A stretch of DNA of 64,000 nucleotides from Candidatus Scalinduaceae bacterium. Lineage in GTDB: Bacteria > Planctomycetota > Brocadiia > Brocadiales > Scalinduaceae. Shown piece after piece: positions 1-20,009 of this stretch (the stretch's first letter is position 1; every line of letters begins with the position of its first letter). The stretch lies in contig JBHICG010000004.1 in the NCBI GenBank assembly GCA_046759445.1, forward strand, positions 48,083 through 112,082. Reading direction: 5' to 3'. The position numbers were made by a program, and so were the translations under genes. The notes below the pieces were generated by a model, which was not told the origin of the DNA, did not search any database, and worked only from the letters and a program-made list of their open reading frames with translations.

Positions 1-546
1 TCTTTAACTCCACCCGAGGAAACTCTGTTAGACAAAGCGGTAAAGAAAGGGTATGCAGTCATAGGTGTTGGTAAGATTGGTGATATTTTTGCGCATAGGG
101 GGCTAACAAAGGAAATACATACTTCCGACAACCATGATGGTATTTCAAAGACGATAAAATGTATTAAGGAGGATTTCAAAGGAATTATTTTTACGAACTT
201 AATTGACTTTGATATGAAGTACGGACATAGAAACAACCCAAAAGGTTATGCAGAAGCATTGGAGTCATTTGATGATAGACTACCGGAAATTGTAGATGCA
301 TTAAGAAAAGAGGATGTTATCATTCTTACAGCCGATCATGGCTGTGACCCAACTACACCCAGCACAGATCATTCACGGGAATATGTGCCACTTTTGGTTT
401 ATGGGAAAACATTGGGGAGGCCTAAATCACTTGGTGTTCGCAAATCGTTTGCGGATGTAGGTGCAACTGTAGCTGAAATCTTACAAATATTAGAATTTGA
501 TAAGGGAGAAAGTTTTCTAAAGGAATTGATAAATAATCAGGCCTGA
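1..546 (+). CDS. deoB: Phosphopentomutase, C-terminal part (5' end outside window)
   Basis: Frame 1 is open from base 1 ([11 protein letters not shown]...GVGKIGDIF...[16 protein letters not shown]...TADHGCDPT...[10 protein letters not shown]), typical DeoB metal-binding motifs. Confidence 0.93.
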
Positions 547-864: not shown

Positions 865-1743
865 ATGTTTCGACTAATAGATATCCTGCACCTTCTCCGC
901 CCGCAAGAGTGGATTAAAAATACATTTGTTTTTGCCGCCCTAATTTTCTCCCAGCAGCTATTAAACGTAATGGATGTTCTGAAAGTGATTGGTGCGTTTG
1001 TGCTGTTCTGCATGGTATCAGGGGTAATTTACATTATAAATGATATCTTTGATCTGGAACATGATAGAGTACATCCGATAAAAAAGGATAGACCTCTTGC
1101 TTCGGGACGGATAAATATTTCCCTGGCCTGGCTCTTGGCCGTGATTCTGGTAGTGATATCTATGACCTTTTCATTTGCTCTTCAACCAAACTTCATGTTT
1201 GTTCTGGTGTTATATTTTCTGATTAATTTTGCTTATTCTCTTTATCTCAAAGGGATCGTTATTGTGGATGTTATGACTCTGGCTTTTGGTTTTGTTTTAA
1301 GGGCTATTGCTGGAGGCGTGGTGATACAGGTGCCGGTATCTTCATGGTTAATTGTCTGTACTGCTCTAATATCCCTGTTTTTAGGTTTTGGGAAAAGACG
1401 ACATGAGCTTATTTTACTAGATGAGGAAGCCGGCAATCATAGAAGTATTTTAAGGGAATACAGTCCCTATTTTTTAGACCAGATGATATCCGTAGTTACG
1501 GCTTCGTCGGTTATTGCTTATACCTTCTATACCATGTCCGAAGAGGTACAGGAAAAACTTCATACTCATTATCTTGGGCTTACGATCCCATTTGTTCTAT
1601 ACGGAATCTTTCGGTATCTTTACCTGGTACATCAAAAACAAGGTGGCGGGAATCCTGCTCAGGAACTTCTCGCAGACAGGCCCCTTCTTATCAATGGGAC
1701 ACTTTGGGTTCTTGCCGTAATAGTAATTCTTTATGATTGGTAA
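865..1743 (+). CDS. UbiA-family polyprenyl-phosphate phosphoribosyltransferase (DPPR synthase-like), copy 1
   Basis: LLRPQEWIKN start, YIINDIFDLEHDRVHPIKKDRPLASG motif, KRRHEL, multiple TM helices; typical of the Rv3806c-like subfamily. Confidence 0.88.
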   Translation: MFRLIDILHLLRPQEWIKNTFVFAALIFSQQLLNVMDVLKVIGAFVLFCMVSGVIYIINDIFDLEHDRVHPIKKDRPLASGRINISLAWLLAVILVVISMTFSFALQPNFMFVLVLYFLINFAYSLYLKGIVIVDVMTLAFGFVLRAIAGGVVIQVPVSSWLIVCTALISLFLGFGKRRHELILLDEEAGNHRSILREYSPYFLDQMISVVTASSVIAYTFYTMSEEVQEKLHTHYLGLTIPFVLYGIFRYLYLVHQKQGGGNPAQELLADRPLLINGTLWVLAVIVILYDW

Positions 1744-2833
1744 AAATATGACACGATCGATCGTTGTTGTTAAAAGAACAAAACCTGATACTGTTCTTTC
1801 TGATTTCGAGGAAATTATTCAGGCATCTGGTCTACTGGAGGCTTTAGACTCCTCCCGTGTTACAATTTTGAAGGACAATATTACATGGCATTTCCCTTTC
1901 TTAAGCGCTAATACTACTCCCTGGCAGTTGGAGGGGACCATTTTGGCTCTAAAAAATGCCGGCTTTAACAAACTTGTGGCCGTCCATAATAATACAGTTG
2001 TTACAAATCCTTATAAGGGAGGGATATTAAACAAGCTGACTCCCATCTACAAGAAATATGGCATCGAAGAAAGGTACAACTTCCTGCCTGAAGATATCAA
2101 ATGGATAACTTATAAACCGAAGGCAGAGATGCGAGTGCTTAATAATATTTACAAAAAAGGGATTAAAATTCCTGAATTTTTTATTGATAAAAATATTGTT
2201 CATCTACCCACCATGAAAACCCACATTTACACTCAGATCACAGGAGCTATGAAGAATGCCTTTGGTGGTTTACTTAACACCAGGCGTCACTATACACATA
2301 GTGTCATCCACGAGACGTTAGTTGACCTTTTGGCTATTCAAAAAGAAATTCATGCTGGAATATTTGCGGTGATGGATGGAACGATTTGTGGAAGTGGTCC
2401 CGGCCCGAGGACTATGCAGCCTGTAGAAAAGGATTATATTTTGGCCAGCTCAGACAGCGTAGCCATTGATGCCGTTTCTGCTAAGATGATGGGCTTTAAT
2501 CCCATGAAGATACCCTTCATACGTTTGGCGCATGAAGATGGACTAGGGAAAGGCAACCTGTCACAGATTGAAGTATCAGGAGAGGATATCTCAATGGTTA
2601 ATTTTGGGTTCCAGGTAGGGGATAATCTTGCAAGCCTTGTGGGCGATGCCTTCTGGTTCAGTCCTGCCAAAATGTTTCAGAGGCTTCTTTTTCACACTCC
2701 ATTGGTGTACGCCTTCGTGCTCGGATCATATATATACCATGATTATGTCTGGTGGCCCTTTAAGGGTAAAAGAAAAATGGCTGAAATCAGTGAAACCAAA
2801 TGGGGGAAATTATTTGCCTCATACGATAGTTAA
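1733..2833 (+). CDS. DUF362-family protein (start may be ATG 1748)
   Basis: LKDNITWH...NTTPWQLEG, HLPTMKTH..TQITGAMKNAFGGL, AVMDGTICGSGPGP, DSVAIDAV..KMMG motifs. Confidence 0.8.
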   Translation: MIGKNMTRSIVVVKRTKPDTVLSDFEEIIQASGLLEALDSSRVTILKDNITWHFPFLSANTTPWQLEGTILALKNAGFNKLVAVHNNTVVTNPYKGGILNKLTPIYKKYGIEERYNFLPEDIKWITYKPKAEMRVLNNIYKKGIKIPEFFIDKNIVHLPTMKTHIYTQITGAMKNAFGGLLNTRRHYTHSVIHETLVDLLAIQKEIHAGIFAVMDGTICGSGPGPRTMQPVEKDYILASSDSVAIDAVSAKMMGFNPMKIPFIRLAHEDGLGKGNLSQIEVSGEDISMVNFGFQVGDNLASLVGDAFWFSPAKMFQRLLFHTPLVYAFVLGSYIYHDYVWWPFKGKRKMAEISETKWGKLFASYDS

Positions 2834-5835: not shown

Positions 5836-8175
5836 ATGAGTATGAGAATCAATAAGTTATCGATTATTGAGGATAAATGTCCTAATTTCTGGGTGATGGT
5901 TATTTTATTCCTTTTGCAGTTGATGTTGTTGTGGAGAATGATTTTTTTAAACCAGTTTCCTCTAGATTGGGACCTTATGGGGCAGATATATCCGTGGAGG
6001 GTTATCTCTGCCAAGATGATTAAGGATGGGATTATACCCTTGTGGAATCCTTATATTTTAAGCGGCACACCTCTCTTAGCCGATATGTTGAGCGGAGTAT
6101 TTTATCCCCTCAATCTTCTTTTTTTAATCCTGACGCCGTTTACGGCCATGAAGTTAAACTATTTTATACATTATTTTCTAATGGGAATCTTTACGTATTT
6201 TTTTTGTATATCTATTAAAATGGATAGATTCGGTGGATTGATTGCGGCCACTATTTTTCCCTTTAGTCTTTATGTCTTCTCTAGAGAGACTCTTGCTACA
6301 AATACTACTGTCCTGGCTTCAATAACCTGGTTGCCCCTTTTGTTTATGCTAGTCGAACGATTATTGGCAAAAAACAGGTTGACAATTTCAATGTTATTAG
6401 GGGTCGTCCTTGCTTTACAGTTTCTTGCCGGACATCCCCAAATTGCTTATTATTCAACGTTGTCTCTCATATTATATCTGGTTTTTAGGTGCTACAGTGA
6501 AAAAAGGGAGTGGCGTAAAATTCTTAAATCGTGTTTCCTTCTTGCCTTCGCTCTTTTTCTCGGCGTGTTTTTGTCTGCTGTTCAAATATTACCTACGATT
6601 GAGTTTACAACACTGAGTTACAGGGGATGGAATCAGGATGTACTTGGGGGCCTGGGTCCCAGCGACTTCTTTCGCCTGGGAGGGGTATATGTGGGTATAG
6701 TACCTCTAATACTGATTTTACCTTTACTCATATTCCAAAGGAATATGTATGCATTTTTTTTCTTTGCGCTTATCATTATAAGTTTTCTGGTAATGGTTGA
6801 ATTTACTCATTTTTCTTCTTTGTTATCTCGTATTATCCCCTTTTTCCGAACCTTTTATGGAGCAAATAGGGTAATTTTCCTCTATATCTTTTCTGTGTCT
6901 ATACTGGCTGGGATTGGAGTAAACACCTTGATAGAGAACTTTGATACAGAAAAAAAGGATTATCTGGCAAAACTCTGTAAGTTTATGGCATTTTTCAGCA
7001 TACTCCTAGTATTTGTCTTAGTTTTTGCCTATTGGGGGAGAGAAGTTATCTTTTCTTTGTCTTTAAAGGTGATTTCAAATATTACGAGTTCTGCTGAAAC
7101 TAGCGAAAAATTATATAAAATTCACTCATCTTTTATCTCCTTAATGTGGTTTTCGCTCTCGGTCATCATTCTTAGTATGGCCCTCGTATTTCTTCGATTA
7201 AGAAATAAGTTCGGTAATCACTTATTTATGGCAGGTATTTTGTTGCTTGTCCTGGCCGTCCTTTTGATACAAGAAAAACCAACTAATGTTGACTTAAGAG
7301 TATATTTTGAGAAAACTGAGGCGACTAAATTTTTAAAAAACCACAATAAATATCAACGAATAGATGCCATTGACCCAAAATATGTTATAGATAGGCCACA
7401 ATTAAACTTTTTCGTTCCTAATATTAACAGTATACACAATATTTACGGGATCCGCGGATATACCCCACTTCATATGTCTTATTATCTGGAATTTATAGAC
7501 CTGATAAATGGAGCTGGAGTGGATTCATCTCTTTATAGGAGTGGAGAGAAAAAGCGTTTTTTATGGGTAGACAACTTTAAGTCTAAATTAGTTGACCTAT
7601 TAAATGTCAGATATATAGTTACCAGTAAAGGAATAAAAGATCCACAATTTAATCTTGTCTATGCAGATGATATTAAAATCTACGAAAATAAAAATGTGCT
7701 TGAAAGAGCATTTATGGTATACGATTATAAAGTAATTAAAGACAAACAAGGAATTTTGTCAGAACTTGGGAGTGATGATTTTAATCCCAGAAAGGTGGTA
7801 ATACTGGAAAGAGAACCTCAAAAAGTTTTGAAGAATGAAGGTGATTTATCAGTATCACAACTCGATAGCGTTGACATAATTACCTATCTTCCCAATGAGG
7901 TAGTTATTCAGACTGAATCGGATAGGGGTGGATTCTTAGTATTGGGTGATACTTATTATCCAGGTTGGAAGGTGTTTGTGGATAGGAATGAAGACGTAAT
8001 ATATAAAGCGAACTACATCTTGAGAGGTGTATACTTAGATGAAGGGTCCCATACCATTAAGTTTATCTATGATCCCATTTCTTTTAAGTTAGGATGGATT
8101 GTAAGCTTGACAACATTGGTTGGCATATCGCTATTTTTCCTGTGTTGCATCTGGCCTTTGAGGTTAGAGAGGTAA
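5836..8175 (+). CDS. YfhO-family GT-C membrane glycosyltransferase
   Basis: PLWNPYILSGTPLLAD, LAGHPQ, AVQILPT; C-terminal GFLVLGDTYYPGWKVFVD...ANYILRGV...Y.P.SF. Confidence 0.85.
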   Translation: MSMRINKLSIIEDKCPNFWVMVILFLLQLMLLWRMIFLNQFPLDWDLMGQIYPWRVISAKMIKDGIIPLWNPYILSGTPLLADMLSGVFYPLNLLFLILTPFTAMKLNYFIHYFLMGIFTYFFCISIKMDRFGGLIAATIFPFSLYVFSRETLATNTTVLASITWLPLLFMLVERLLAKNRLTISMLLGVVLALQFLAGHPQIAYYSTLSLILYLVFRCYSEKREWRKILKSCFLLAFALFLGVFLSAVQILPTIEFTTLSYRGWNQDVLGGLGPSDFFRLGGVYVGIVPLILILPLLIFQRNMYAFFFFALIIISFLVMVEFTHFSSLLSRIIPFFRTFYGANRVIFLYIFSVSILAGIGVNTLIENFDTEKKDYLAKLCKFMAFFSILLVFVLVFAYWGREVIFSLSLKVISNITSSAETSEKLYKIHSSFISLMWFSLSVIILSMALVFLRLRNKFGNHLFMAGILLLVLAVLLIQEKPTNVDLRVYFEKTEATKFLKNHNKYQRIDAIDPKYVIDRPQLNFFVPNINSIHNIYGIRGYTPLHMSYYLEFIDLINGAGVDSSLYRSGEKKRFLWVDNFKSKLVDLLNVRYIVTSKGIKDPQFNLVYADDIKIYENKNVLERAFMVYDYKVIKDKQGILSELGSDDFNPRKVVILEREPQKVLKNEGDLSVSQLDSVDIITYLPNEVVIQTESDRGGFLVLGDTYYPGWKVFVDRNEDVIYKANYILRGVYLDEGSHTIKFIYDPISFKLGWIVSLTTLVGISLFFLCCIWPLRLER

Positions 8176-8281
8176 TAGTGTTAATTCGGCTTAATAAACT
8201 TTTAAATTAAGGAGGTGCTACTTTTACTTACAACAAAAATAGTAGGTAACTGTAGCGAAAAGGTCTTTTGGGGAAAATTAA

Positions 8282-9223
8282 ATGAATATTTTGCCATACT
8301 TAAAGGTAATGCGCATCGATCATTACCACAAGAATGTTTTTGTAATTGTTGGTATTGTCGTATTCTTTAAGGTCGCTGATGCAAAAATAGACATACCCCT
8401 TTTATTCAAACTTTTTGGGGCAATACTCATTGCTTGTATTGCATCATCCTTTAATTATATTATAAACGAATTACTAGATTCGGACTCAGATAAATTTCAT
8501 CCGAAAAAAAAACATAGGCCTGTTCCATCAGGAGATACCAACATATATGTTGTTTTAACTATAAGCGTCTGTATTTTATTGGTTACTTTATGTTTAAGCT
8601 TCTTCTACTACAGCATGTATTTTTTTATAACACTAATTTTGTTTTTCCTTTTAGCAATTCTATATAATGTGCCGCCCCTTCGGTTTAAGGATGTTGTATA
8701 CATGGATGTAGTAATTGAATCAGCTAATGCCCCCATTAGAATATTATTGGGTTGGTATGCAATTGGGACGAATATGCTTCCAAAATTATCAGTTCTGGTA
8801 TCGGTTTGGTGTCTAGGTGGTTTTCTTATGACGGCAAAACGATATGCTGAGCATAAATTTATATCAAATGACTCTGACAGGGGCATGTATAGAAGGTCTT
8901 ATAACACTTATACAAGTGAAATATTGTCTACTTATATGGTTTTCTGGCTTATCCTTTTCAATTTTGCATTTGGTATATTTATTGTACGTATAGAACCCGC
9001 AACATTAGTAGTATCTCCATTTTTAATAACTTTTTTTATCTGGTATTGGTGGTTATCGACGAAACCCGATTCTATAGTTAAAGAGCCAGAAAGGGTCTTT
9101 GAAGAAAAGGGATTTTTTGTTTATTCGGTATTTCTTTCAATCCTTTTTGGTGTCGTTTTTTTATTCGGCAGTGAAATTCCCTTGATTGATTATATTCACC
9201 ATCGCTATCTTTTCCCCAAATAA
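8282..9223 (+). CDS. UbiA-family polyprenyl-phosphate phosphoribosyltransferase, copy 2 (divergent subfamily)
   Basis: MRIDHYHKN, NYIINELLDSDSDKFHPKKKHRPVPSG, YNVPPLRFKD, ESANAPIR, KRYAE. Confidence 0.82.
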   Translation: MNILPYLKVMRIDHYHKNVFVIVGIVVFFKVADAKIDIPLLFKLFGAILIACIASSFNYIINELLDSDSDKFHPKKKHRPVPSGDTNIYVVLTISVCILLVTLCLSFFYYSMYFFITLILFFLLAILYNVPPLRFKDVVYMDVVIESANAPIRILLGWYAIGTNMLPKLSVLVSVWCLGGFLMTAKRYAEHKFISNDSDRGMYRRSYNTYTSEILSTYMVFWLILFNFAFGIFIVRIEPATLVVSPFLITFFIWYWWLSTKPDSIVKEPERVFEEKGFFVYSVFLSILFGVVFLFGSEIPLIDYIHHRYLFPK

Positions 9224-9312
9224 ATGTTTGTGCTTTCTTATATAACTTCCTGTTGCTAAAATAAAGATAGACCTATTAGGCATTAAGGGAATTAATAGTG
9301 CTTATACTTGAG

Positions 9313-9469
9313 TAATTAGTTTCTGTTGCGGAAAACTGAAATCCCCAAAAATGTCATTCTGAACTTGTTTCAGAATCTATGCATATCAATCCTGAATCAA
9401 GTTCAGGATCAGAGACCCTGAAACGAGTTCAGGGTGACAATATAACGTTTCCGCAACAGAAACTAATTA
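9313..9469. mobile_element. MITE/REP-like element with perfect 22-bp terminal inverted repeats, copy 1
   Basis: TAATTAGTTTCTGTTGCGGAAA (9313) ... TTTCCGCAACAGAAACTAATTA (ends 9469); internal TGTCATTCTGAACTTGTTTCAGAATCT and CCTGAA..GTTCAGG palindromes; related copy at 22974. Confidence 0.75.
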
Positions 9470-9536
9470 TTAATAATGAGATTGGATATAAATTATAGCC
9501 GTTTCCTTTGGTTAATAAAAGGAATCGAGGGAGAGA

Positions 9537-10562
9537 ATGAAAAAGACTAAAATACTGAAAACGGGATTGAGGTTTTCCAGAAAGTTTGTTTTGAATAAAT
9601 TGGGGATAAGAGCTCCATTTCATGTTCAATGGGAAATCCTTTATGGATGCAACCTCAAATGCGATTTCTGTAATGTGTGGAGAGACCATACTTATGATGC
9701 GACTAGATTGAAGAGAGAGGATGCACTGCATTTGGTTGATGAATTGGCGGAAGTAGGCGTGATGTTTCTGAATCTCACAGGAGGAGAACCATTAATGCTT
9801 GACCACACAACTGACGTACTTCAAAGGGCAAAAGAACACGGCATCTACACTTCCATGAACACTAATGGGGTATATGTTAAGGATAAGGTTAAGGAATTAA
9901 AGAAGGGGATTGAATTACTGTATGTTTCCCTCGATAGTCCTTATGCTAAAACCCACGATGAATTAAGGGGAGCGGAGGGATGTTTTTCCCAGATAATGGA
10001 TGGGATTAGGGCTGCATATGACGAAGGTATTAACCTGGCAATCAACATGACTGTCACAAAAAAGAACTTTGATCATATGGAGAAGATGTGTGAATTGGCA
10101 ACTAATTTAAATGTTCCTTTGTACATTAGGCACGTTAAAGTTATCCCAACCGAATTCAATGATGTTTCCAATGCTTCCAAACTAAATTACTCAGCGATGA
10201 AACATGTAGAGGCAGTGAGGAAATTGAAGAAAAAGTACAAGGCAATAAAGACAAGTGATGCATATCTAAATTTTATGGAGAACAAAGGTTTTACTAATTA
10301 CCCGTGCAAGGCTATGAAAATAAGTCTGAACATTAAGCCGGATGGTACACTGGTTCTGCCTTGTGGGTATTTTCCCGTGCATAAATTTAAGAAGAACGGC
10401 AAGTCATTAAAGGAGATAATAAAGAGCAAAGGATTTGAGGAAAAAACAAATATTAGGTGGTATGATTTCTGCGATAACTGCACTTTAAGTTGTTTTTATG
10501 TTCCAACAGCAATGATGGATTTTAAGAATTATATTTCCCTGGTGAAGAGTTATGTTAGATAA
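9537..10562 (+). CDS. Radical SAM protein with twitch/SPASM-type C-terminal Cys domain
   Basis: CNLKCDFC (CX3CX2C), TGGEPL, C-terminal CKA...DGTLVLPC...CDNCTLSC. Confidence 0.9.
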   Translation: MKKTKILKTGLRFSRKFVLNKLGIRAPFHVQWEILYGCNLKCDFCNVWRDHTYDATRLKREDALHLVDELAEVGVMFLNLTGGEPLMLDHTTDVLQRAKEHGIYTSMNTNGVYVKDKVKELKKGIELLYVSLDSPYAKTHDELRGAEGCFSQIMDGIRAAYDEGINLAINMTVTKKNFDHMEKMCELATNLNVPLYIRHVKVIPTEFNDVSNASKLNYSAMKHVEAVRKLKKKYKAIKTSDAYLNFMENKGFTNYPCKAMKISLNIKPDGTLVLPCGYFPVHKFKKNGKSLKEIIKSKGFEEKTNIRWYDFCDNCTLSCFYVPTAMMDFKNYISLVKSYVR

Positions 10563-10631
10563 AACATTTCTGGAATTAATGTTTGACCTAGTAATAACAA
10601 AATAAATATCTTTGCTTTTAAAAAGAGGATA

Positions 10632-11669
10632 GTGAAAATTTTATTAAAGACATTAAGGGTTGCGACTAAAGCTACGAAAGGTGTTTTTTTAGGGAAGAGA
10701 ATTCCCATTAACGTTATGTTGTCCCTCACCGATCGGTGTCAATCCCTTTGTACCTATTGTCAAATTCCCCAGCGTCAAAAAAAGGAAATGACAACAAAAC
10801 AAATTCGGTTATTGATTGACCAGATTATTGCGGAAGGCTGCGAGAGGATAGCGCTTTGGGGAGGAGAGCCGCTCCTTCGTAAAGATATTGGTGATATTAT
10901 TCGGTATTGTAAGAGTAAAAATTTATATGTTACCATGGATACAAATGGATTTTTGATTGAGAAACACCTTGAGGAAATAGCAAATCTTGATGTACTCCTG
11001 ATTAGTTGGGACGGCCCAGAGCAGGCGCATGAGGCAAATCGAATCCCCAACAGTTACGACAGAGTCGTAGATGCCATAAAAATAGCGAAGGAAAAGGTAA
11101 AGGTGTGGACTCTTACTGTTTTAACAAAACATAATATTAACCGCATTAATGAGATACTGGAAATTGGAGGGCGGCTTGATGTTCCTATGCTTTTTCAACT
11201 CCTTTACCACAATCAAGACCAGTCTGGTAACACGAGCAACCTTCTTCCGAGCCGCCAGGAACATTTGGATGCCTTTAAACGGCTTATTGAAGCCAAAAAA
11301 AAGGGTATTCCAATTGTGAATTCTTATGCCTATTTGAAACACCTGACCTCCTGGAAGGACTTTTCCAAACAAACTCAATCATTCCGGAAACGTGGTTATC
11401 CATTATGCAGAGCAGGTCAATTTTTCTGTAACGTTGATGTTGACGGTAAAGTTTATCCTTGTAATAGACTTGTAGAGCAAGTTGGTGCGAAGAGTTTTCT
11501 GGATGTGGGGTTTAAAGAGGCGTTTGGGTTTACGAGCCGGAATGGCTGTGAATCCTGTATTACGCCGGGGATTGAGTTTAGCCTTATGTTTTCCTTTGAT
11601 ATTGCGTCTATTGTCAACTGGATCAATTTCATATTAAAAACCCAATCTCGCCCACGACAAGACCAGTAA
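10632..11669 (+). CDS. Radical SAM protein with twitch/SPASM-type C-terminal Cys domain
   Basis: CQSLCTYC, WGGEPL, CRAGQFFCNVDVDGKVYPC...CESC; GTG start after AGAGGA. Confidence 0.9.
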   Translation: MKILLKTLRVATKATKGVFLGKRIPINVMLSLTDRCQSLCTYCQIPQRQKKEMTTKQIRLLIDQIIAEGCERIALWGGEPLLRKDIGDIIRYCKSKNLYVTMDTNGFLIEKHLEEIANLDVLLISWDGPEQAHEANRIPNSYDRVVDAIKIAKEKVKVWTLTVLTKHNINRINEILEIGGRLDVPMLFQLLYHNQDQSGNTSNLLPSRQEHLDAFKRLIEAKKKGIPIVNSYAYLKHLTSWKDFSKQTQSFRKRGYPLCRAGQFFCNVDVDGKVYPCNRLVEQVGAKSFLDVGFKEAFGFTSRNGCESCITPGIEFSLMFSFDIASIVNWINFILKTQSRPRQDQ

Positions 11670-11679
11670 TTACTTATTA

Positions 11680-12594
11680 ATGGAACATTCAAAGATGAAA
11701 GTACTTGTTACAGGAGCTACTGGTTTTGTAGGACAACGGCTGATTTCAAGCTTGGTGGAAAGAAGCCATGATGTTATCGCCTTTGCTTTACAGGACGACA
11801 GTCCTGCTGTTGCCTTGTTTCAAAGAAATGTAGAAGTTAAATATGGCGATATTAGGGATCAGTCATCTATTGAAAAAGCCCTTAATGAGGTTGAAGCTGT
11901 TATAAATTTAGCAGCAGTACAGGAATCTAACGACCAAAAGCTTAATGAAGAGGTTAATTATAAAGGTGTAAAAAACCTTATTGGGGCTTGTAAAAAACGT
12001 TCCACCAGACGCTTAATTCACTTATCTAGTATTGCCACCTGCTACAAAAATAAAAATTATTATGGTAAATCAAAAGAAAAGGCTGATCAATATGTAATGA
12101 ATAAATCTGATATGGATTATACAATAATTCGCCCTACCTTGATTTACGGTGACTGCATGGGAGGGCCTTTCCATACCTTTATAAAAACATTAGAGATACT
12201 ACCATTTATAATTCCAGTTATTGGTAATGGAAAAGCATTAAAACGGCCAATATTTGTAGATGACGTTGTTTCTGCCGTCATCCTTTCATTGGAATTGGAA
12301 ATAGCCATTGGCAAATATTACAACATTAGCGGCCGTGATATTGTTTCCGTCGAGAAAATGATTAAGCGGATATTAGCAAGGAAAGGTATTAAAAAATTGA
12401 TTGTCAAGATTCCAGTTTGGATTTTATACCCTTTTGCGTTTGTCTTAGAAATGTTTTTTACTAATCCTCCTTTTACGCGTGCATCTCTGATAACGGCTAC
12501 ACAGGACGGTATCTTAGATCATAGTTTAATCAGGGATGAGCTTGGATTTAGACCAGTGTCTTTTGAAGAAGGACTTGCGAAAACTGGTTTTTAA
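11680..12594 (+). CDS. NAD(P)-dependent epimerase/reductase (extended/atypical SDR)
   Basis: VLVTGATGFVG, YGKSK (YxxxK), TIIRPTLIYG. Confidence 0.85.
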   Translation: MEHSKMKVLVTGATGFVGQRLISSLVERSHDVIAFALQDDSPAVALFQRNVEVKYGDIRDQSSIEKALNEVEAVINLAAVQESNDQKLNEEVNYKGVKNLIGACKKRSTRRLIHLSSIATCYKNKNYYGKSKEKADQYVMNKSDMDYTIIRPTLIYGDCMGGPFHTFIKTLEILPFIIPVIGNGKALKRPIFVDDVVSAVILSLELEIAIGKYYNISGRDIVSVEKMIKRILARKGIKKLIVKIPVWILYPFAFVLEMFFTNPPFTRASLITATQDGILDHSLIRDELGFRPVSFEEGLAKTGF

Positions 12595-12623
12595 CAACAG
12601 GTGTTAACTTCCTTGTTGTAATT

Positions 12624-14681
12624 ATGCCGAAGATTAAGATTGATCTTGGGAAGTTCAGGAAAAGGTTTGAGATGAAAATCAGTGACTACATAAACAATTC
12701 CAATAAAGCTATTACTTGTATGGTTGTCATAGTTACAGGTGTCTGGTTTAGCTCTTTATTTTTTCTTCCCAAAGATGCTTTTTGGTCGGGAGACATGGGA
12801 GTTAAATTGATACAGGTAAATAGTTTTATTTCAAAACAGTATAGTGGAATCTCCCTGGACTACCCGGGAAGGGATATTGATCCTCAATTAAAATTTTATC
12901 CACTCTCAGGCGATGAGGGTGCAGTTTTAGTCTTTGAAGTTGATGGGAAAATGTATTCCAAGGATCAAGTTTTTTTCACCTTTTTATCATCTTTTTTTTA
13001 TAAGGCATTTGGATACTCAGGCCTGTATGTGATTTCTTTTTTTGCAGGGGCCTTTACTTTAATACTCACATTTTTAATATGTAAGCATAGTCCTGCCCGG
13101 AAATATGCCTGGTGCAGTATTTTTTTGATTGGCCTTGCAACACCACTCTGGTTTTACTCCATAACATTTTGGGGACACACTTTAGCAACCTTCCTATTTT
13201 CATTGGCCTTGTTTTTAATGATACTAGGAAGACAGAAGGGGAACCTATTTCTCTTTTTCGTTTCAGGGCTCATAATAGGTGTGGGAATTTGGAGCCGACC
13301 GGAAATTTATCTTTTGGTAGTAGCCTCTATTGCAGCACTTATTTTAGACAATAAAGATAGAAAAACTAAATTTCAAAGGATAATGTGGATGCTTATAGGA
13401 ACCCTTTTGCTCCTTTTACCGATGTGGGGTTTTAATCTGATGATTTTCAATAAACCTTTTACCCCACATATGGCACAATTATCACACAGTACATTTACCA
13501 GTCTTGTATATTCCTTTGTTAGTACCTTAACCATGTTATTTCATGGACCTTTACAAAATATATTCCACGACCTTCTTTTACAGATTCCTTTTGCCATACT
13601 GTTTGTTTTAAGTATAAACTTAAAAACCGATAGATTATGGCCCAAACTATTCTCTATAGTGTTGTTGAGTTGTATATTAGTTTCATTCACAGCATTACTT
13701 AAAACTGACCGCACTGTTTCAGGTCTTGTGCCTCTTAGCCCTTTTATTGCCTTTTCCTTCCTGCTTTTATCTTATCCAATAAATGTTTTCAGAGAAATTC
13801 TTATGCGAGATCAGAAGATTCGTACAATCAGTTCTGTTTTTAATATCCTGTTTAGCTTTGTCTGGGTAGCAGCTTCTTTGTTTTTATTTACGAAACCTGA
13901 GTTTACGGTCATATTAGGACTACCTTATCAAGGCAGATTCTTCTGGCCTATTGCATTTATTTTATTGGCTATAATTCAAATATTATTGGTCTCTTGGTTA
14001 TTAAATAAAAGAGACGAAAAAAATACTATTGGTTTTGTTGATGATGAAAGAGTATGGGTTAAATTTCTCGGTGTAATTTTTATAGTTTATATTCTACTGA
14101 CATGTGTTTCCACTCCATCTCCGGGAGGCAATGAATATGGCCCCCGCTATTTACTTCCTCTTTATCCTGTCCTTATTGTTCTAACCCTGATTGCCGTAAC
14201 TAAACTTTTTGAAAGCGGGTTTTTTCACGTGTATAAAAAGGTTTTCTTTTTATCTTTCATTATTCTTTTCGGTTTATCTGTAATGTTTCAGGTTAAAGGA
14301 GTGAAAATATTGAATGAGAAGAAAAAGGCCTGTCTTTCTCTTGTTAGGGCTACCCAGAAACTGGGTTCTCAGGTTGTTATTACAGATGCCTTAAACTATC
14401 CCTGGGAGACTGCTTCGATTTTTTATGAGAAGAAATTGTTTTATATTTCTGATAAGAAAAAATTAGCGGGATTATTGAATATTTTGGTCAGTAAGGATAT
14501 AGATGAGTTCATATTTGTTACCTGGTCTGATCTTAATAAAAGCCTTCTTAATGGTATGGATACTTTACTGCCATACAAAATACAAAGCAGTCCTTCTGAT
14601 AGGTTATATGTTTCCAGCCCAATCTTGTTAGGTAATTTTGTTCTCCAAAAATATAAAATTATGTTTAGCAGAAGTACTTAA
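12624..14681 (+). CDS. GT-C-fold membrane glycosyltransferase
   Basis: Many TM helices; first luminal loop SGDMGVKLIQ; WFYS..FWGHT; RPE; GPRYLLPLYP; soluble C-terminal domain. Confidence 0.65.
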   Translation: MPKIKIDLGKFRKRFEMKISDYINNSNKAITCMVVIVTGVWFSSLFFLPKDAFWSGDMGVKLIQVNSFISKQYSGISLDYPGRDIDPQLKFYPLSGDEGAVLVFEVDGKMYSKDQVFFTFLSSFFYKAFGYSGLYVISFFAGAFTLILTFLICKHSPARKYAWCSIFLIGLATPLWFYSITFWGHTLATFLFSLALFLMILGRQKGNLFLFFVSGLIIGVGIWSRPEIYLLVVASIAALILDNKDRKTKFQRIMWMLIGTLLLLLPMWGFNLMIFNKPFTPHMAQLSHSTFTSLVYSFVSTLTMLFHGPLQNIFHDLLLQIPFAILFVLSINLKTDRLWPKLFSIVLLSCILVSFTALLKTDRTVSGLVPLSPFIAFSFLLLSYPINVFREILMRDQKIRTISSVFNILFSFVWVAASLFLFTKPEFTVILGLPYQGRFFWPIAFILLAIIQILLVSWLLNKRDEKNTIGFVDDERVWVKFLGVIFIVYILLTCVSTPSPGGNEYGPRYLLPLYPVLIVLTLIAVTKLFESGFFHVYKKVFFLSFIILFGLSVMFQVKGVKILNEKKKACLSLVRATQKLGSQVVITDALNYPWETASIFYEKKLFYISDKKKLAGLLNILVSKDIDEFIFVTWSDLNKSLLNGMDTLLPYKIQSSPSDRLYVSSPILLGNFVLQKYKIMFSRST

Positions 14682-14692
14682 GGGGATGCGTA

Positions 14693-16006
14693 TTGAGTAT
14701 GGTTAGAAACATCAATTCTTTTAGTTCCGGGATTCATTTGCCAATTGCCATAATTAGTTTTGCATTGTTGTTGAGAATATTGGCGGTACTCTTCATAGTA
14801 GATCCTTCTACCCCTACAGGGGATGTTCAGCATGATATGTATGCCGTAAATATTATAAACGGGAATGGATTTCGGATTGATAATCTCCTTAGTATTCAAG
14901 GAGGTGAAACACCGGGAAGCTTTGGGCTGGACACCCTGTTTTCTTTTAAGCCACCTTTGTATCCCATGTTTCTAGCGACAATCTATTCTACTTGCGATCG
15001 TAATTTTTTGGCAGTTGGAATAATACAGGCATTTTTAGGCTCCCTATCCTGTTTAATTCTCTTCCAAATTAGCAAAAGGATATTTGATGAGAAAGTAGGT
15101 TTAATTTCTACATCAATATTTGCACTATATCCTTATTTCGTTCTTCAGGGAACAAAAGTTATGGATACCACTTTATTTACATTTCTAACCGTAATAAGTA
15201 TTTTGTATTTATATAAAGTTACAGAAAGGCCAACTTCTGTGAATATGGTGGCGGCAGGAATAATTATGGGTCTTGCAATACTATGTAGACCCATTTTTCT
15301 TCCATTCATCCCTTTTGTTTTCGTCTGGTTGTGGTTTTCTTCCCCCTCAAAAAAGATAAGGGTACTTAAAATCATCACGATAACTTCTATATTTATCATA
15401 TTAACGGTGTTACCCTGGACTGTAAGAAATTATATGGTTCATGGACGACTTGTTTTACTTGGTACCAATGGAGGCTATACATTCTGGCAGGCAAACAATC
15501 AGTTTACTGAAAAGTATATCAAAATGCGTAGTGATTTAGACCCTATTGCCTTTAACGAAGGTATTGACTGGAAGGAAGAAGGGCTGTATGGACTTTCTGA
15601 GGTAGAGCAGAATAGTTGGTTTTATAAAGAGGGGGTGGGATATATTTACAATCACCCATTTGATTTGGTCAGGTTGTCAGCGCTTAAGTTTCTCAGTTTA
15701 TGGAGTTGGCATATTTATCCATCCTCTGAAAGTAAACTAAAAAATGCCATCTATACCTTTACATATGGGCCTATACTCATAATGGCAATAGCTGGAATAG
15801 TGTTGAGTCATAATAGATGGGAAAAGACATCCCTATTATTGCTTCTATTCTTTGCTTTTACTATTGTATATGCGATATTTTACGGAAAGACAATCTACCG
15901 ATCCCCATTAGACCCATTTCTCTTTGTTTTTTCCGCATATACTTTACGCATTATTTGGAACAAGATAAAGAGCCCCGTTCTTGGTAAAAATTTTTCTGAT
16001 GTATAA
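14693..16006 (+). CDS. GT39/PMT_2 (ArnT-like) membrane glycosyltransferase
   Basis: GD...YAVNIINGNGF, KPPLYPMFLA, LCRP, PWTVRNY, GGYTFWQAN. Confidence 0.82.
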   Translation: MSMVRNINSFSSGIHLPIAIISFALLLRILAVLFIVDPSTPTGDVQHDMYAVNIINGNGFRIDNLLSIQGGETPGSFGLDTLFSFKPPLYPMFLATIYSTCDRNFLAVGIIQAFLGSLSCLILFQISKRIFDEKVGLISTSIFALYPYFVLQGTKVMDTTLFTFLTVISILYLYKVTERPTSVNMVAAGIIMGLAILCRPIFLPFIPFVFVWLWFSSPSKKIRVLKIITITSIFIILTVLPWTVRNYMVHGRLVLLGTNGGYTFWQANNQFTEKYIKMRSDLDPIAFNEGIDWKEEGLYGLSEVEQNSWFYKEGVGYIYNHPFDLVRLSALKFLSLWSWHIYPSSESKLKNAIYTFTYGPILIMAIAGIVLSHNRWEKTSLLLLLFFAFTIVYAIFYGKTIYRSPLDPFLFVFSAYTLRIIWNKIKSPVLGKNFSDV

Positions 16007-16090
16007 GAAATTGTAAACTAGCGTACAGAGAAAAAACCTTATTGTTCTCTTTGATTAATCAAGATTTGTTCTGAGGTTTGGAGTTATAAT

Positions 16091-17794
16091 ATGTTTCGAG
16101 AAAGATATGTGACAATTTTAATAGTGGTTCTTTTGTCTGCTCTTACTCTACAGGTGATTTTAATCATGAAGGAAAAGTCTGTAACGGCCGACGAGATGAT
16201 CTTCATTAAATCTGGGCATCAATACTTGAAAACGGGCAACATTAATATCGATGATGTTAATCCACCATTAATAATGATCATATCTGCCTTACCCCTTTTA
16301 TTTCTGAATACAACCGTAGAAACCGAAATTCCACCAGGAGTTGAGGAATTATGGTTTCAGCTTTACTCGTATAGCCAAAATCCTGATCAGATCCTCTTTT
16401 GGGCAAGGGTTCCTATGCTTCTTTTATCTTTGATGTTGGCTTTATTGGTATTTAGATGGGCTAGAGATTTTTACGGTACTAAGGCTGGTTTATTGGCCCT
16501 ATCCTTATATTCTTTCAGTCCAACTATTATAAGTTTATCAGGATTTGCTACACTTGATTTGGGTTCGACCTTCTTTATCTTTCTAGCCTTATATCTCTTT
16601 TGGAAATTTCTGAAGAACCCGAGTCTGGGAAGGTTAGTGATTATGTGCCTTTCTGTTGGATTGGCTTTTTCTTCCAAGCATACTTCATTGATGTTAATCC
16701 CAAGTTTCATTTTGTTATCTTTTATTGTTGTTTTTAAAGGAAATTTTAACTTACCAGCTACCTGGCCTTTCTTCAAGAAATATGGGAAAAATCATAAAAT
16801 TATCTTTTGGGGAACATCTTCCGGAATATTAATAATCATATTGGTACTGACGGTCAATATTGTATGCGGATTTAATGGCACAGGAATACCATTAGGGGAT
16901 CTCCCATTCGTGGAAAAAGAAGTTTTTAAGAGTCATCCTCTTTTTAGTAGATTAATAAATCCTTATACCGATTGGATACCGATCCCACTTCCCTATGCAT
17001 ATCTTCGTGGGATAGGTTCAACGATAGCTCGTACTACCATGACACATGGTTTTCCTTCTTTTTTAATGGGGGAGATTTCTCCAGATGGGTGGTGGTATTA
17101 TTTTCTCTTTGCATTTGCGGTTAAGACACCTATTCCTTTTCTTATTGCAATTCTATTCAGCATTGTCTTAATTAAAAAGTCAAAGAATATCAATTGGTGT
17201 GATGAGCTCTTTTTAGCAATTCCAATCGGTGTAATGTTTATTATGGCCTCCAGGAGCAACGCCCAGATGGGTATACGCCATATATTAGTGGTTTACCCAC
17301 TTCTGTTTGTATTTGCGAGTAAGCTCGTCCAGGTGGATTTGAAACGAAAGATAATCACTATAATTTGTGGGATAATATTGGGAATATGGTACGTTTACGC
17401 TTCTATTTCCGTATCACCTCATTATCTCTCGTACTTTAACGAATTTGTGGGTGGACCGAAAAATGGATATCGATATTTAATAGACTCTAACCTTGATTGG
17501 GGTCAGGATGTGAAAGGCTTGGTAAAATTAATGGATAGGAAGGGCATAGATAAGATTAAGTTTGGTCATTGGATAGGGATAGAGCCGAGGTATGCATCTC
17601 GTTTTGAAGAGTTAGGATGTGAACCAACTACAGGTTGGGTGGCGATTCAAGTCAACTCGTTGCAAGGATTAACGGAAGCCTGGGGGGTATTAAGCCCGGA
17701 CTGTTATGCGTGGTTAAGAAAACTGGAACCTGTAGATAGGGCTGGGTATTCAATCTTTGTGTATTATATTCCAACCAAGCCATTATCATTATGA
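16091..17794 (+). CDS. GT39/PMT_2 membrane glycosyltransferase
   Basis: SVTADE luminal motif, NPPL, ARVPM, SKHT, GWWYYF, KTP, GIRH, DSNLDWGQD. Confidence 0.82.
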   Translation: MFRERYVTILIVVLLSALTLQVILIMKEKSVTADEMIFIKSGHQYLKTGNINIDDVNPPLIMIISALPLLFLNTTVETEIPPGVEELWFQLYSYSQNPDQILFWARVPMLLLSLMLALLVFRWARDFYGTKAGLLALSLYSFSPTIISLSGFATLDLGSTFFIFLALYLFWKFLKNPSLGRLVIMCLSVGLAFSSKHTSLMLIPSFILLSFIVVFKGNFNLPATWPFFKKYGKNHKIIFWGTSSGILIIILVLTVNIVCGFNGTGIPLGDLPFVEKEVFKSHPLFSRLINPYTDWIPIPLPYAYLRGIGSTIARTTMTHGFPSFLMGEISPDGWWYYFLFAFAVKTPIPFLIAILFSIVLIKKSKNINWCDELFLAIPIGVMFIMASRSNAQMGIRHILVVYPLLFVFASKLVQVDLKRKIITIICGIILGIWYVYASISVSPHYLSYFNEFVGGPKNGYRYLIDSNLDWGQDVKGLVKLMDRKGIDKIKFGHWIGIEPRYASRFEELGCEPTTGWVAIQVNSLQGLTEAWGVLSPDCYAWLRKLEPVDRAGYSIFVYYIPTKPLSL

Positions 17795-17884: not shown

Positions 17885-18568
17885 ATGGATGGTAATAATA
17901 CAATTTCAATAGTTATTCCAACTAAAAACGAAGAGAAGACAATCGGGGAGGTAATTAATACAGTTAAATCTTATGGAGACGAAATATTAGTAGTAGATGG
18001 GCACTCTACTGACCTAACCAGGGAGATTGCCGAAGAACAAGGAGCGAAAGTTGTACTGGATAATGGAAAGGGAAAGGGAGATGGAATACGGGTGGCAATT
18101 GAAAAGGTAAGTGGAAGTATAATAGTCTTCATCGATGCAGACGGTTCGCATGACCCACAGGATATCCCTAAGCTCTTAGCTCCCATATTAGAAGGAAATG
18201 CCGACCTTGTTATGGGTTCAAGGATGACTGGAGGAAGCGACGAGTTACACGGTTCAATTGGAGAGGTTGCAAGATTATTAGGGAGTGTCATAATTACGTT
18301 AGGGATAAATTACAGATATGGTGTAAGGCTTACAGATTATCAAAACGGTTTCAGGGCTATTAAGACATCTGTGGCCAGAGCAATAGGTCTAAAAGAGGAC
18401 ATTACTACCATAGAGCAAGAAATGGCGATAAAGTGTCTGAAAAAGGGATTTGCTGTTACAGAGGTTCCAACACATGAATATAAAAGAAAGTACGGTGATT
18501 CTCGAATTAACTTGAGGAAAGTTTGGTATAGATACATTTATAGTTGGCAGAAGTATATGTTTTTCTAA
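17885..18568 (+). CDS. GT2, DPM-synthase-like polyprenyl-phosphate glycosyltransferase
   Basis: IVIPTKNEE, VVDGHSTD, GKG, FIDADGSH, GSR, TDYQNGFRA, EVP...R.YG.S. Confidence 0.85.
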   Translation: MDGNNTISIVIPTKNEEKTIGEVINTVKSYGDEILVVDGHSTDLTREIAEEQGAKVVLDNGKGKGDGIRVAIEKVSGSIIVFIDADGSHDPQDIPKLLAPILEGNADLVMGSRMTGGSDELHGSIGEVARLLGSVIITLGINYRYGVRLTDYQNGFRAIKTSVARAIGLKEDITTIEQEMAIKCLKKGFAVTEVPTHEYKRKYGDSRINLRKVWYRYIYSWQKYMFF

Positions 18569-18599
18569 TTGTTTTCACATAACAATATACCGTTGTTCA

Positions 18600-20009
18600 A
18601 TGAAACAAAACAAAAAGGTTCTTCTTATTATACCCAATGATCACGATACTTACCAAACCAAGGTGCGGGTGGCAATGTATAGTGTCCCTCCAGTCAACAT
18701 GGCCACTATATCAACGCCCTTGATAAAGGCAGGTCATCATGTAGAAATATTGAATTTGAACTTAATGAAGAATAATCTGAATACAGTTAGAGATCGAGTA
18801 TCAAACCTTTTGCCAGATTATGTTGGTGTGACCTTCAAGACCCCGTGTTTTTATGATGCTGTGGAGATAGGCAAGATAGTAAAGGAGAATAACCCGGGCA
18901 CCATTCTTATATGTGGAGGCCCACACACTTCTTCATTTCCTGAGGATACACTCCTGGACTCACCATTTGATATAGCCGTGGTTGGTGAGGGTGATTTTAC
19001 TCTAGAAGAGATTGTTTCTGGCAAACCATGTGAAGAAATAAAGGGTATCTGTTTCAAAGATGAAGATGGACGGATAATAATGAACGAGAGGAGAAAACAG
19101 ATTAAAGATTTAGACAATCTCCCCCTACCGTCCTGGCATCTCTATAATCTAAGAGATTACAAAAGCCCACGAGTAGTTTGCAAGAAAAATCCGGTAGGGA
19201 TCATGGAGACCAGCAGGGGTTGCGTCTACAGTTGTATTTATTGTAATAAAAGTGTCTTTGGCAATAATTTTAGGGTTAAATCACCAGAGAGAGTGGTTGA
19301 TGAAATGGAGTTTATGTTACAGTCTGGGTTTAGGGAGATTTGGATTGCTGACGATATGTTTTCTACCAATATTAATAGGGCTAAGAGTATCTGCGACTTA
19401 ATAATAAAAAGAGAGTTGAAGTTCCCATGGGCTCTTTTTAATGGTATCAGAGTAGATTTTGTTGATGAGGAGTTATGTTATAAAATGAAGAAGTCGGGAT
19501 GTTATTATGTATCCGTTGGTGTAGAATCAGGAAATCAGAAAGTATTAGATAGTACAGATAAGCGTATTACCTTGGAACAGGTAAGGGAAGCTTTTAGGCA
19601 TTTGAGGAAAGCCCATATAATGATTCAGGCATACTTTATGTTTGGTCTGCCACAGGATACAGAGGCCTCTATGCAGGATACCATCGATTTTGCTAAAGAG
19701 TTACTTCCGGATATCCCCAAAGCGGCTATCACTGTACCTTTGCCGGCTACCCCCCTATATGAGGGACTTCATAGAAAAGGAAGAATAAAGACTAACGATT
19801 GGAGGGCATATAATCAGCAAACGACAAAAGAGTTATTTGTGCATCCTAATTTGTCCTGGGAGATCATATGTGAATATAACAGACGATTTTACAAGGAATT
19901 ATATCTAAACCCAAAATATATCTTTCAAAGAATTAGAAGAGGACTAACCGATGGGCAGATATTTTGGGATTGTTACTATTTTTTGAAGAGCCTTAGATAC
20001 AAGTGGTAA
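18600..20009 (+). CDS. B12-binding-domain radical SAM protein
   Basis: N-terminal cobalamin-binding-like domain (GGPH, GEGD), TSRGCVYSCIYC, DDMF, GVESG, FMFGLP. Confidence 0.9.
   Translation: MKQNKKVLLIIPNDHDTYQTKVRVAMYSVPPVNMATISTPLIKAGHHVEILNLNLMKNNLNTVRDRVSNLLPDYVGVTFKTPCFYDAVEIGKIVKENNPGTILICGGPHTSSFPEDTLLDSPFDIAVVGEGDFTLEEIVSGKPCEEIKGICFKDEDGRIIMNERRKQIKDLDNLPLPSWHLYNLRDYKSPRVVCKKNPVGIMETSRGCVYSCIYCNKSVFGNNFRVKSPERVVDEMEFMLQSGFREIWIADDMFSTNINRAKSICDLIIKRELKFPWALFNGIRVDFVDEELCYKMKKSGCYYVSVGVESGNQKVLDSTDKRITLEQVREAFRHLRKAHIMIQAYFMFGLPQDTEASMQDTIDFAKELLPDIPKAAITVPLPATPLYEGLHRKGRIKTNDWRAYNQQTTKELFVHPNLSWEIICEYNRRFYKELYLNPKYIFQRIRRGLTDGQIFWDCYYFLKSLRYKW

Follow-up and report, generated by a model that had tools for sequence, protein, structure and literature searches.

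We examined a 64,000-nt stretch of DNA (the window; G000:C4:48083-112082) from a Scalindua-family marine anammox bacterium by open reading frame (ORF) listing and by Pfam and NCBIfam domain scans. The subject is a block of four genes encoding a UbiA-type phosphoribosyltransferase (UbiA2), two radical S-adenosylmethionine (radical-SAM) enzymes, rSAM1 and rSAM2, and a short-chain dehydrogenase/reductase (SDR), followed by three glycosyltransferases of the GT-C class. An original prediction, made from the sequence alone, had taken the four genes for a possible oxygen-independent pentose epimerization module. Its gene list and coordinates were right, all four ORFs lying on the + strand, as was its placing of three GT-Cs at 12624-17794; these are of the PMT_2 type, the first scoring below the Pfam cut-off and above that of NCBIfam NF047440. 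The block is best explained as one donor-making branch of a ~60-kb surface-glycan locus. Its features and the adjoining GT-C genes are as follows.

8282..9223, + strand: UbiA2, a divergent polyprenyl-phosphate 5-phosphoribosyltransferase (PPPRS/DPPRS type) of 313 aa; Pfam UbiA 75.8 bits (cut-off 34.2)
9313..9470, no strand: dispersed palindromic repeat resembling a miniature inverted-repeat transposable element (MITE), in the UbiA2-rSAM1 gap; found by blastn against the genome
9537..10562, + strand: rSAM1, a radical-SAM enzyme of a rare clade with a cationic N-terminal helix; Radical_SAM 94.4 bits
10632..11669, + strand: rSAM2, a radical-SAM paralogue of a larger clade; Radical_SAM 91.9 bits
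11680..12594, + strand: SDR of the extended type (3beta-HSD/NDUFA9/HpnA-like), probably membrane-associated; 3Beta_HSD 95.3 bits, Epimerase 91.4 bits
12624..14681, + strand: GT-C 1 (LA_3751/LA_3752 family); NF047440 209.7 bits (cut-off 200), PMT_2 25.0 bits (Pfam cut-off 26.1), 14 hydrophobic segments
14693..16006, + strand: GT-C 2 (PMT_2); PMT_2 55.1 bits
16091..17794, + strand: GT-C 3 (PMT_2/PMT); PMT_2 49.6 bits, PMT 28.7 bits

From rSAM1 onward the genes are closely packed, with intergenic gaps of 69 bp (rSAM1-rSAM2), 10 bp (rSAM2-SDR), 29 bp (SDR-GT-C 1) and then 11 bp. A promoter scan of positions 8000-13000 gave nothing above shuffled sequences (10 found versus 18 expected) and a terminator scan of the same interval found weak terminator-like sites only. 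RNA-library contigs from an independent study cover 29 of 30 and 27 of 30 locus bins at 90-100% identity, which is no proof of transcription, and one 629-nt RNA-library piece spans the rSAM2/SDR junction, weak support that shows neither strand nor operon structure. The segment upstream of rSAM1 (9224-9536) had 61 blastn matches in the genome, ~22-36 of which span segment positions 90-250, and DNA-run assemblies break at the MITE-like repeat. A second copy of the repeat lies at ~22974-23364, between a GT2 gene and asnB, with copies across many contigs.

UbiA2 had been called a divergent second phosphoribosyltransferase carrying the motif ESANAPIR, and this was correct on each count. Its best NCBIfam model was decaprenyl-phosphate phosphoribosyltransferase NF008977, with 94.3 bits (under the cut-off of 234) versus 308.1 bits for UbiA1 (865-1743), and the motif lies at residues 146-153. 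When a profile built from UbiA2 and 25 relatives was compared with solved structures, mycobacterial Rv3806c (8j8j) matched with an E value of 1.2e-27 and the next UbiA structures, 4tq3 and 6m31, gave 2e-11 and 3.8e-8. Hence, UbiA2 is of the phosphoribosyltransferase type with Rv3806c as its closest solved structure, yet it scores below the DPPRS equivalog cut-off. PMC10994848 gives K28, Y70, N73, D77, Q135, Y138, K143, Y157, and K208 as the Rv3806c ligands of phosphoribosyl pyrophosphate (PRPP), Mg, and the 5'-phosphate. Six of these nine are invariant in the UbiA2 subfamily (UbiA2 K17 = K28, Y59 = Y70, N62 = N73, D66 = D77, Y128 = Y138, and K136 = K143), whereas three are altered (Q135 to A125, Y157 to N149, and K208 to R205). 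Homology and the conserved ligands indicate that UbiA2 probably makes polyprenyl-phosphate-5-phosphoribose. Members of the subfamily are numerous and come from many phyla; of 600 pattern matches in the species-genome collection, at least 575 proved to encode relatives.

The two radical-SAM proteins resemble one another (26% identity, E 3e-23) and each has the CxxxCxxC motif (C38, C42, and C45 in rSAM1; C36, C40, and C43 in rSAM2). Their description as twitch/SPASM enzymes stood in part. Against Pfam SPASM rSAM1 reached 19.6 bits (cut-off 21.5) and rSAM2 had no match, but both have conserved C-terminal cysteines, five invariant in the rSAM1 clade (C-x12-G-x5-C ... C-x2-C-x3-C) and four invariant plus one nearly so in the rSAM2 clade (C..C..C ... 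C-x2-C). Judged from the sequences, five conserved C-terminal cysteines would suffice for one auxiliary cluster and not for two. The best NCBIfam model of both proteins was TIGR03961 (the PTO1314 family, which has no assigned function), with near-full-length matches of 164 bits (rSAM1) and 122 bits (rSAM2) that fall short of the cut-off of 306, and hence neither is a member. In sequence searches of the PDB the alignments covered the radical-SAM core only. AlphaFold models (AF2; pLDDT 91.7 for rSAM1 and 93.3 for rSAM2) show one helix ahead of the core, which begins at about residue 25-30 and leaves no room for a peptide-recognition domain in either protein. This N-terminal helix is cationic and amphipathic in both (net charge +7 in rSAM1 and +5 in rSAM2). 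The top Foldseek match of rSAM1 was the sugar-modifying decarboxylase BlsE (7vob; E 4.3e-14, TM 0.67/0.70) and those of rSAM2 were CteB, viperin, and BlsE (rank 4), with peptide maturases, MoaA, anSME, and DesII following within two orders of magnitude. The SPASM/twitch-like fold is shared with BlsE, DesII (8hzv), and viperin, although identity is only 15-21%.

BtrN, the NeoN/HygY epimerases, and AprD4/AprD3 are radical-SAM carbohydrate-tailoring enzymes, and for the links that had been drawn to two of them we found no specific support. BtrN was absent among the Foldseek matches listed, to rank 50, for both rSAM1 and rSAM2. AprD4/AprD3 resembles the present case in pairing a radical-SAM enzyme with an NAD(P)H reductase, but AprD4 has a B12-like domain that Pfam scans did not find in rSAM1 or rSAM2. 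AprD4-like similarity was confined to other window genes (99.8 bits for 18600-20009 and 137.3 bits for 25388-26800; cut-off 500). Moreover, the radical-SAM sugar enzymes act on nucleosides or aminoglycosides, whereas the presumed substrate here is lipid-linked. The rSAM1 clade is tiny, with 17 other clusters at 33-74% identity followed by a drop to 28%, and rSAM1 was not found in 400 other Planctomycetota genomes (E<=1e-30; five candidates per genome scored). A metagenome scan with the generic pattern TGGEP gave at least two true members of the clade, contig L086, the one locus with a usable neighborhood, and the short L087. The rSAM2 clade comprises 154 clusters at E<=1e-15.

The SDR carries the GxxGxxG and YxxxK motifs. 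Its nearest solved relatives are NDUFA9, which is membrane-bound, and sterol-4-alpha-carboxylate 3-dehydrogenase, GalE-type chains matching weakly (E 1e-8 to 1e-5), and its best NCBIfam model was HpnA with 89.5 bits (cut-off 367.65). Hydrophobic segments lie at residues 191-210 and 240-260; together with the cationic helices of the radical-SAM proteins these suggest enzymes that would act at the membrane. A C-terminal Gfo/Idh/MocA dehydrogenase domain was found in 6 of 12 long SDR relatives scanned (P0375, P0390, P0392, P0417, P0460, and P0474; 32-36% identity), which suggests that this SDR family is often one half of an oxidize/reduce pair. The fusions fit the oxidize-then-reduce logic of the original prediction. 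In another relative, P0418, the fusion partner is a polysaccharide deacetylase.

Homologues of the block in close relatives bear on whether its genes belong together. Contigs of 8408, 6366, 10377, and 13233 bp, all from one source, are common to the UbiA2 and rSAM2 homologue lists, the UbiA2 homologues at 58-65% identity and the rSAM2 homologues at 66-75%, and in each case this is the only contig given for the protein. Read from the identical sizes in bp, UbiA2 and rSAM2 homologues appear to be co-located in four relatives, and these cases lie among the seven closest rSAM2 members (66-76% identity). For the SDR we found one representative of 59% identity and nothing else above 40%, which fits the same relatives and does not place the SDR beside the other genes. 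The metagenome contig L086 encodes an rSAM1 orthologue (45% identity) 1.8 kb from a UbiA2-type gene (37.5% identity; 175 bits against UbiA2 versus 55 against UbiA1), with a GMC (FAD) oxidoreductase and a 112-aa ORF between them (L086:10001-13638). The L086 genes are flanked by five large proteins lacking Pfam matches. The module was not found in two same-genus genomes nor in any of 25 other genomes of the family; the only relative, of 31-34% identity, was in G003. There the rSAM2-like gene (L246, G003:C1:73183-74226; 34% identity) has one in-frame TGA. The rSAM2-UbiA link is confined to the window's near relatives.

Given the tight operon, the four apparent co-locations, the L086 contig, the hints of membrane association, the precedent of lipid-level epimerases, and a neighborhood composed entirely of membrane enzymes (the nearest nucleoside diphosphate (NDP)-sugar gene in the window is ~44.3 kb away), we tentatively propose that rSAM2, rSAM1, and the SDR tailor a lipid-linked pentose that the adjacent GT-Cs then use. 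In such a pathway UbiA2 would move 5-phosphoribose from PRPP to polyprenyl phosphate, as homology and the conserved ligands suggest, and a phosphatase would take off the 5-phosphate. Going by gene context and family logic, rSAM2 would abstract a ring hydrogen of the lipid-linked pentofuranose at the cytoplasmic face of the membrane, the rarer paralogue rSAM1 acting too in this genome, and the membrane-associated SDR would use NAD(P)H to reduce the resulting keto or dehydrated intermediate. On the same grounds the product would be a non-ribose pentose donor, either an epimer such as arabinofuranose (Araf) or xylofuranose (Xylf) or a deoxy-pentose, which would be flipped so that the three adjacent GT-Cs could pass the sugar to a glycan outside the membrane. 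The narrower claim, that rSAM2 (with rSAM1) and the membrane-bound SDR convert lipid-linked ribofuranose (Ribf) to Araf, Xylf, or a deoxy-pentose in a manner independent of oxygen and flavin, is possible and we regard it as doubtful. By analogy with AprD4/AprD3, deoxygenation would be an optional outcome, alternative to epimerization.

The mycobacterial decaprenyl-phospho-arabinose pathway consists of the DPPRS Rv3806c, Rv3807c, DprE1/DprE2, and the Emb/Aft GT-Cs. The same logic would apply here: PRPP to lipid-P-ribose-5-P to lipid-P-ribose to modified pentose donor to GT-C. However, DprE2 is a classical short SDR, whereas the window SDR is of the extended type, and the FAD/ALO domain of DprE1 has no counterpart in this genome. 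A search for the DprE1-type ALO domain (PF04030) gave no match in the 97%-complete genome, although a control search matched Corynebacterium glutamicum. As the genome lacks this domain, an oxygen-independent route is a fair question.

Pentofuranose donors of other bacteria provide a second comparison. In the systems of Kelly et al. (PNAS 2024; PMC11127046), a PPPRS and a HAD phosphatase give undecaprenyl-P-Ribf, which is exported by a flippase and then serves a GT-C as sugar donor. The Citrobacter youngae O1/O2 systems described there consist of ORF15 (PPPRS-PRP), ORF14 (MATE flippase), ORF12 (GT-C/GT136), and ORF13 (SDR epimerase), the last of which in O2 converts undecaprenyl-P-Ribf to undecaprenyl-P-Xylf. 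ORF13 and DprE1/E2, both treated in that text, are precedents for tailoring at the polyprenyl-P-pentose level. Like the three-component system of C. youngae, the block has a UbiA-type phosphoribosyltransferase beside GT-Cs and an auxiliary SDR. The two differ in that a HAD phosphatase is neither fused nor adjacent in the block, that a MATE flippase does not adjoin it, that its GT-Cs are assigned to PMT_2, and that its SDR is of the 3beta-HSD/NDUFA9 type. The UbiA2 subfamily as a whole comes closer to C. youngae, having a HAD phosphatase (33/80 loci) and, at L204, a GT-C plus a Wzx/MATE-like gene. The published three-component systems also lack radical-SAM enzymes, two of which lie here between synthase and SDR. 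As one SDR suffices for Ribf-to-Xylf conversion in the published C. youngae system, radical-SAM enzymes would not be needed for epimerization as such, contrary to the original prediction.

We surveyed the neighbors of UbiA2-type genes in the best 80 loci of the subfamily (34-40% identity), 55 of which extend 5 kb or more in both directions. The commonest neighbor was the HAD hydrolase/phosphatase noted above, which lies within 500 bp in 25 loci. In 15 loci a B12-binding radical-SAM homologue lay no more than 10 kb from the UbiA2 homologue; AsnB was found in 14 by tblastn and 13 by ORF cluster, and GT-C relatives of GT-C 2 (GTC2) and of GTC4 in seven each. The family relative L204 combines its UbiA2 homologue with the GT-C and the Wzx/MATE-like gene, and in another, L203, the UbiA2 homologue is accompanied by a DSP-type phosphatase, a B12-radical-SAM gene, and Wzm/Wzt; the UbiA-B12 arrangement of L203 is seen in L046 too, and the two were not counted as independent. 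The loci with a B12-binding radical-SAM neighbor include L046, L020, L007, L203, and ten from metagenome-assembled genomes of Lachnospiraceae or unclassified Bacillota (L081, L067, L064, L068, L079, L069, L083, L074, L073, and L036). Three of these neighbors are probable orthologues of window gene 18600-20009 (36-39% identity, 316-375 bits).

Among 400 other Planctomycetota genomes, 11 have a distant rSAM2 relative (27-40% identity). Such relatives were also present in 7 of the 301 genomes from the phylum sampled around G430, in G432, and in one of the 27 other genomes of the family to which the window belongs, but in neither of the two same-genus genomes. We viewed 21 such loci to ~10 kb on each side. 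GT2 genes resembling polyprenyl-P-sugar synthases occur in 8 of the 12 Planctomycetota loci, some of which also have GT-C or DUF2079 genes, and Pfam scans of six loci found class I methyltransferases, DUF362-ferredoxin fusions, SPASM radical-SAMs, SDRs, GT-C/DUF2079, and LPG_synthase_TM. Judging from the neighbors in the 21 loci, the rSAM2 family belongs to glycan-tailoring loci in general. DUF362-ferredoxin fusion genes stand beside rSAM2-type genes in L183 and L190, radical-SAM-rich glycan loci of two other Planctomycetota.

A number of observations weigh against the tailoring of a lipid-linked pentose by this block. Within the block, the 313-bp gap between UbiA2 and rSAM1 carries the palindromic repeat, and the Gln135 of Rv3806c that contacts ribose O3 in the described structure is replaced by Ala in UbiA2. 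Foldseek matched sugar and peptide radical-SAM enzymes about equally well. Neither HAD, PAP2, nor DSP domains were found in the window ORFs scanned, and no MATE flippase adjoins the module. The expected conservation of the neighborhood failed at the level of the UbiA2 subfamily, an outcome that the original prediction had itself named as refuting: rSAM1 and rSAM2 as queries each matched in 1 of 80 loci, weakly (44 and 47 bits) and to the same generic radical-SAM gene in L011, and the SDR likewise matched in one (79 bits, L042). Conversely, a UbiA homologue was present in none of the 21 distant rSAM2 loci, 16 of which (11 of 12 from Planctomycetota and 5 of 9 others) have B12-radical-SAM homologues. 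As some of these loci hold NDP-sugar genes (GDP-mannose dehydratase, RmlD), the rSAM2 family may act on a nucleotide sugar or on a hexose. In the close relatives, the rSAM1 list contains none of the four shared contig sizes, the closest rSAM1 homologue (74%) being on a 9449-bp contig that is in neither the UbiA2 nor the rSAM2 list, and gene order that was simply inherited, not functional coupling, may account for the shared contigs.

These observations can be accommodated in several other ways. The SDR alone might be the pentose epimerase, as ORF13 is, with the radical-SAM enzymes serving other branches of the locus, for example together with B12-radical-SAMs on hexose donors made by GT2 enzymes. 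The published precedent speaks for this, as a GalE-like SDR with TGxxGxxG and YxxxK suffices for Ribf-to-Xylf in PMC11127046 and the window SDR has both motifs; the association of rSAM2 relatives with B12-radical-SAM and GT2 genes in the absence of UbiA, and the eight radical-SAM genes and two GT2 synthase-like genes of the window, point the same way. We nevertheless consider it rather unlikely given the 3beta-HSD/NDUFA9 type of the SDR with its weak GalE matches, the mere 10 bp that separate rSAM2 from the SDR, and the common contigs on which UbiA2 and rSAM2 homologues appear in four relatives. It is unlikely, too, that UbiA2 gives the GT-Cs unmodified polyprenyl-P-ribofuranose while rSAM1, rSAM2, and the SDR have nucleotide sugars or the completed glycan as substrates, their adjacency to UbiA2 being only gene packing. 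The all-membrane neighborhood remote from NDP-sugar genes argues otherwise, as do the cationic helices and hydrophobic SDR segments that suggest work at the membrane. Most UbiA2-subfamily loci do lack a tailoring enzyme beyond the phosphatase, rSAM2-type loci elsewhere hold NDP-sugar dehydratase/reductase genes, and a module missing from the 2 same-genus and 25 other family genomes would fit a shuffled accessory locus.

Two further explanations take the radical-SAM enzymes away from the sugar altogether. Because their best sequence and fold relatives include RiPP maturases (SkfB, PqqE, SuiB, and CteB), rSAM1 and rSAM2 could be SPASM-type peptide or protein maturases that modify a surface protein or small peptide. 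This seems very unlikely for proteins that lack an N-terminal peptide-recognition domain and have five conserved C-terminal cysteines versus the seven of SPASM, in a gene context that is all glycan-related and where the domain scans noted no precursor-peptide gene. Modification of the polyprenyl carrier or another isoprenoid, by HpnH-like double-bond addition and HpnA-like SDR chemistry, would accord with the scores of rSAM1 against DUF3463, the C-terminal domain of HpnH (30.0 bits; cut-off 31.3), and of both proteins against full-length HpnH TIGR03470 (74.7 bits for rSAM1 and 62.2 for rSAM2), with HpnA as the best model of the SDR, and with HpnJ as the best model of a window B12-radical-SAM (216.3 bits). 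However, the scores are far under the cut-offs for HpnH (225), HpnA, and HpnJ (577.6), the PTO1314, AhbD, and MoaA models outscore HpnH for rSAM1, and neither a squalene-hopene cyclase nor another lipid gene was seen in the window domain scans, and thus we judge isoprenoid modification highly improbable.

The tailoring pathway would require a phosphatase and a flippase. When PRP-type HADs of 24 related loci were searched against the genome only weak matches on other contigs were obtained (61 and 49 bits). The window has a Wzx-type Polysacc_synt gene at 29983-31299 and an LPG_synthase_TM gene at 57291-58229. Upstream of the block lies a second gene pair and downstream of the GT-Cs another, as follows.

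865..2833, + strand: UbiA1 (DPPRS equivalog; NF008977 308.1 bits, cut-off 234) and a DUF362 gene (DUF362 83.6 bits)
17885..20009, + strand: GT2 polyprenyl-phosphate glycosyl synthase-like gene and B12-binding radical-SAM gene (Pfam/NCBIfam)

The UbiA1 stop overlaps the DUF362 start by 11 bp. DUF362 belongs to a Pfam clan that also includes the N-terminal domain of LarA, a nickel-pincer lactate racemase (PMC11770544), and the genome encodes LarC (473 bits) and seven DUF362 paralogues. Orthologues of the UbiA1-adjacent DUF362 protein were found by tblastn (38-67% identity) in 21 of 300 other Planctomycetota genomes, and within a 1.5-kb flank a UbiA1-type gene lies directly upstream of DUF362 in 8 of these 21 loci. 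The conserved UbiA1-DUF362 pair may provide an oxygen-independent epimerase or some other partner of a ribose-lipid synthase; for converting lipid-linked ribose by an oxygen-independent route, the radical-SAM block is no better a candidate. Directly upstream of UbiA1 on the same strand are deoC (267 bits) and a deoB phosphopentomutase gene (543 bits) at G000:C4:46739-48711, which may supply pentose phosphate for PRPP; the last 546 bases of this stretch (L202:16740-18629) are window positions 1-546. We considered deoB as the missing phosphatase and rejected it, as it is an above-cut-off DeoB equivalog.

By Pfam and NCBIfam scans nearly the whole window is one glycan locus. There are eight radical-SAM genes (starting at 9537, 10632, 18600, 25388, 31377, 32457, 33880, and 40965), nine genes that match PMT, PMT_2, or YfhO (two below the Pfam cut-off), and genes for Wzy_C, GT2 (two synthase-like), GT4, Wzx-type, initiating Bac_transf, and LPG_synthase_TM proteins. 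The six radical-SAM genes beyond the block (18600-42041) are interleaved with GT-C genes. Those at 18600, 32457, and 33880 have a Pfam B12-binding domain and those at 31377 and 40965 are of the SPASM type, whereas the gene at 25388 has no B12-domain match, yet scores 164.9 bits against HpnJ and 137.3 against AprD4, both under the cut-offs.

Anammox surface glycans contain unusual, heavily methylated residues, described as of unresolved identity in PMC5088730. The decoration of surfaces with pentofuranose via lipid-linked donors was generalized only in 2024, and the known routes for changing the pentose use either a flavoenzyme/SDR pair (DprE1/E2) or a single SDR. In our literature search we found no publication that connects radical-SAM enzymes with polyprenyl-phosphate sugars or with GT-C systems. 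If the proposed tailoring is true, the block would add a new enzyme class to the lipid-linked pentofuranose pathway. No radical-SAM enzyme before rSAM2 (with rSAM1 in this genome) would have been shown to act on a sugar linked to polyprenyl phosphate, and if they and the SDR turn lipid-linked Ribf into another pentose, together they would do for an anaerobe what DprE1/DprE2 does elsewhere. Such tailoring would also account for the diversification of these pentoses in strict anaerobes lacking DprE1, and would give a function to a radical-SAM clade that comprises at least 154 clusters and is found repeatedly in glycan loci of Planctomycetota and other sampled groups.

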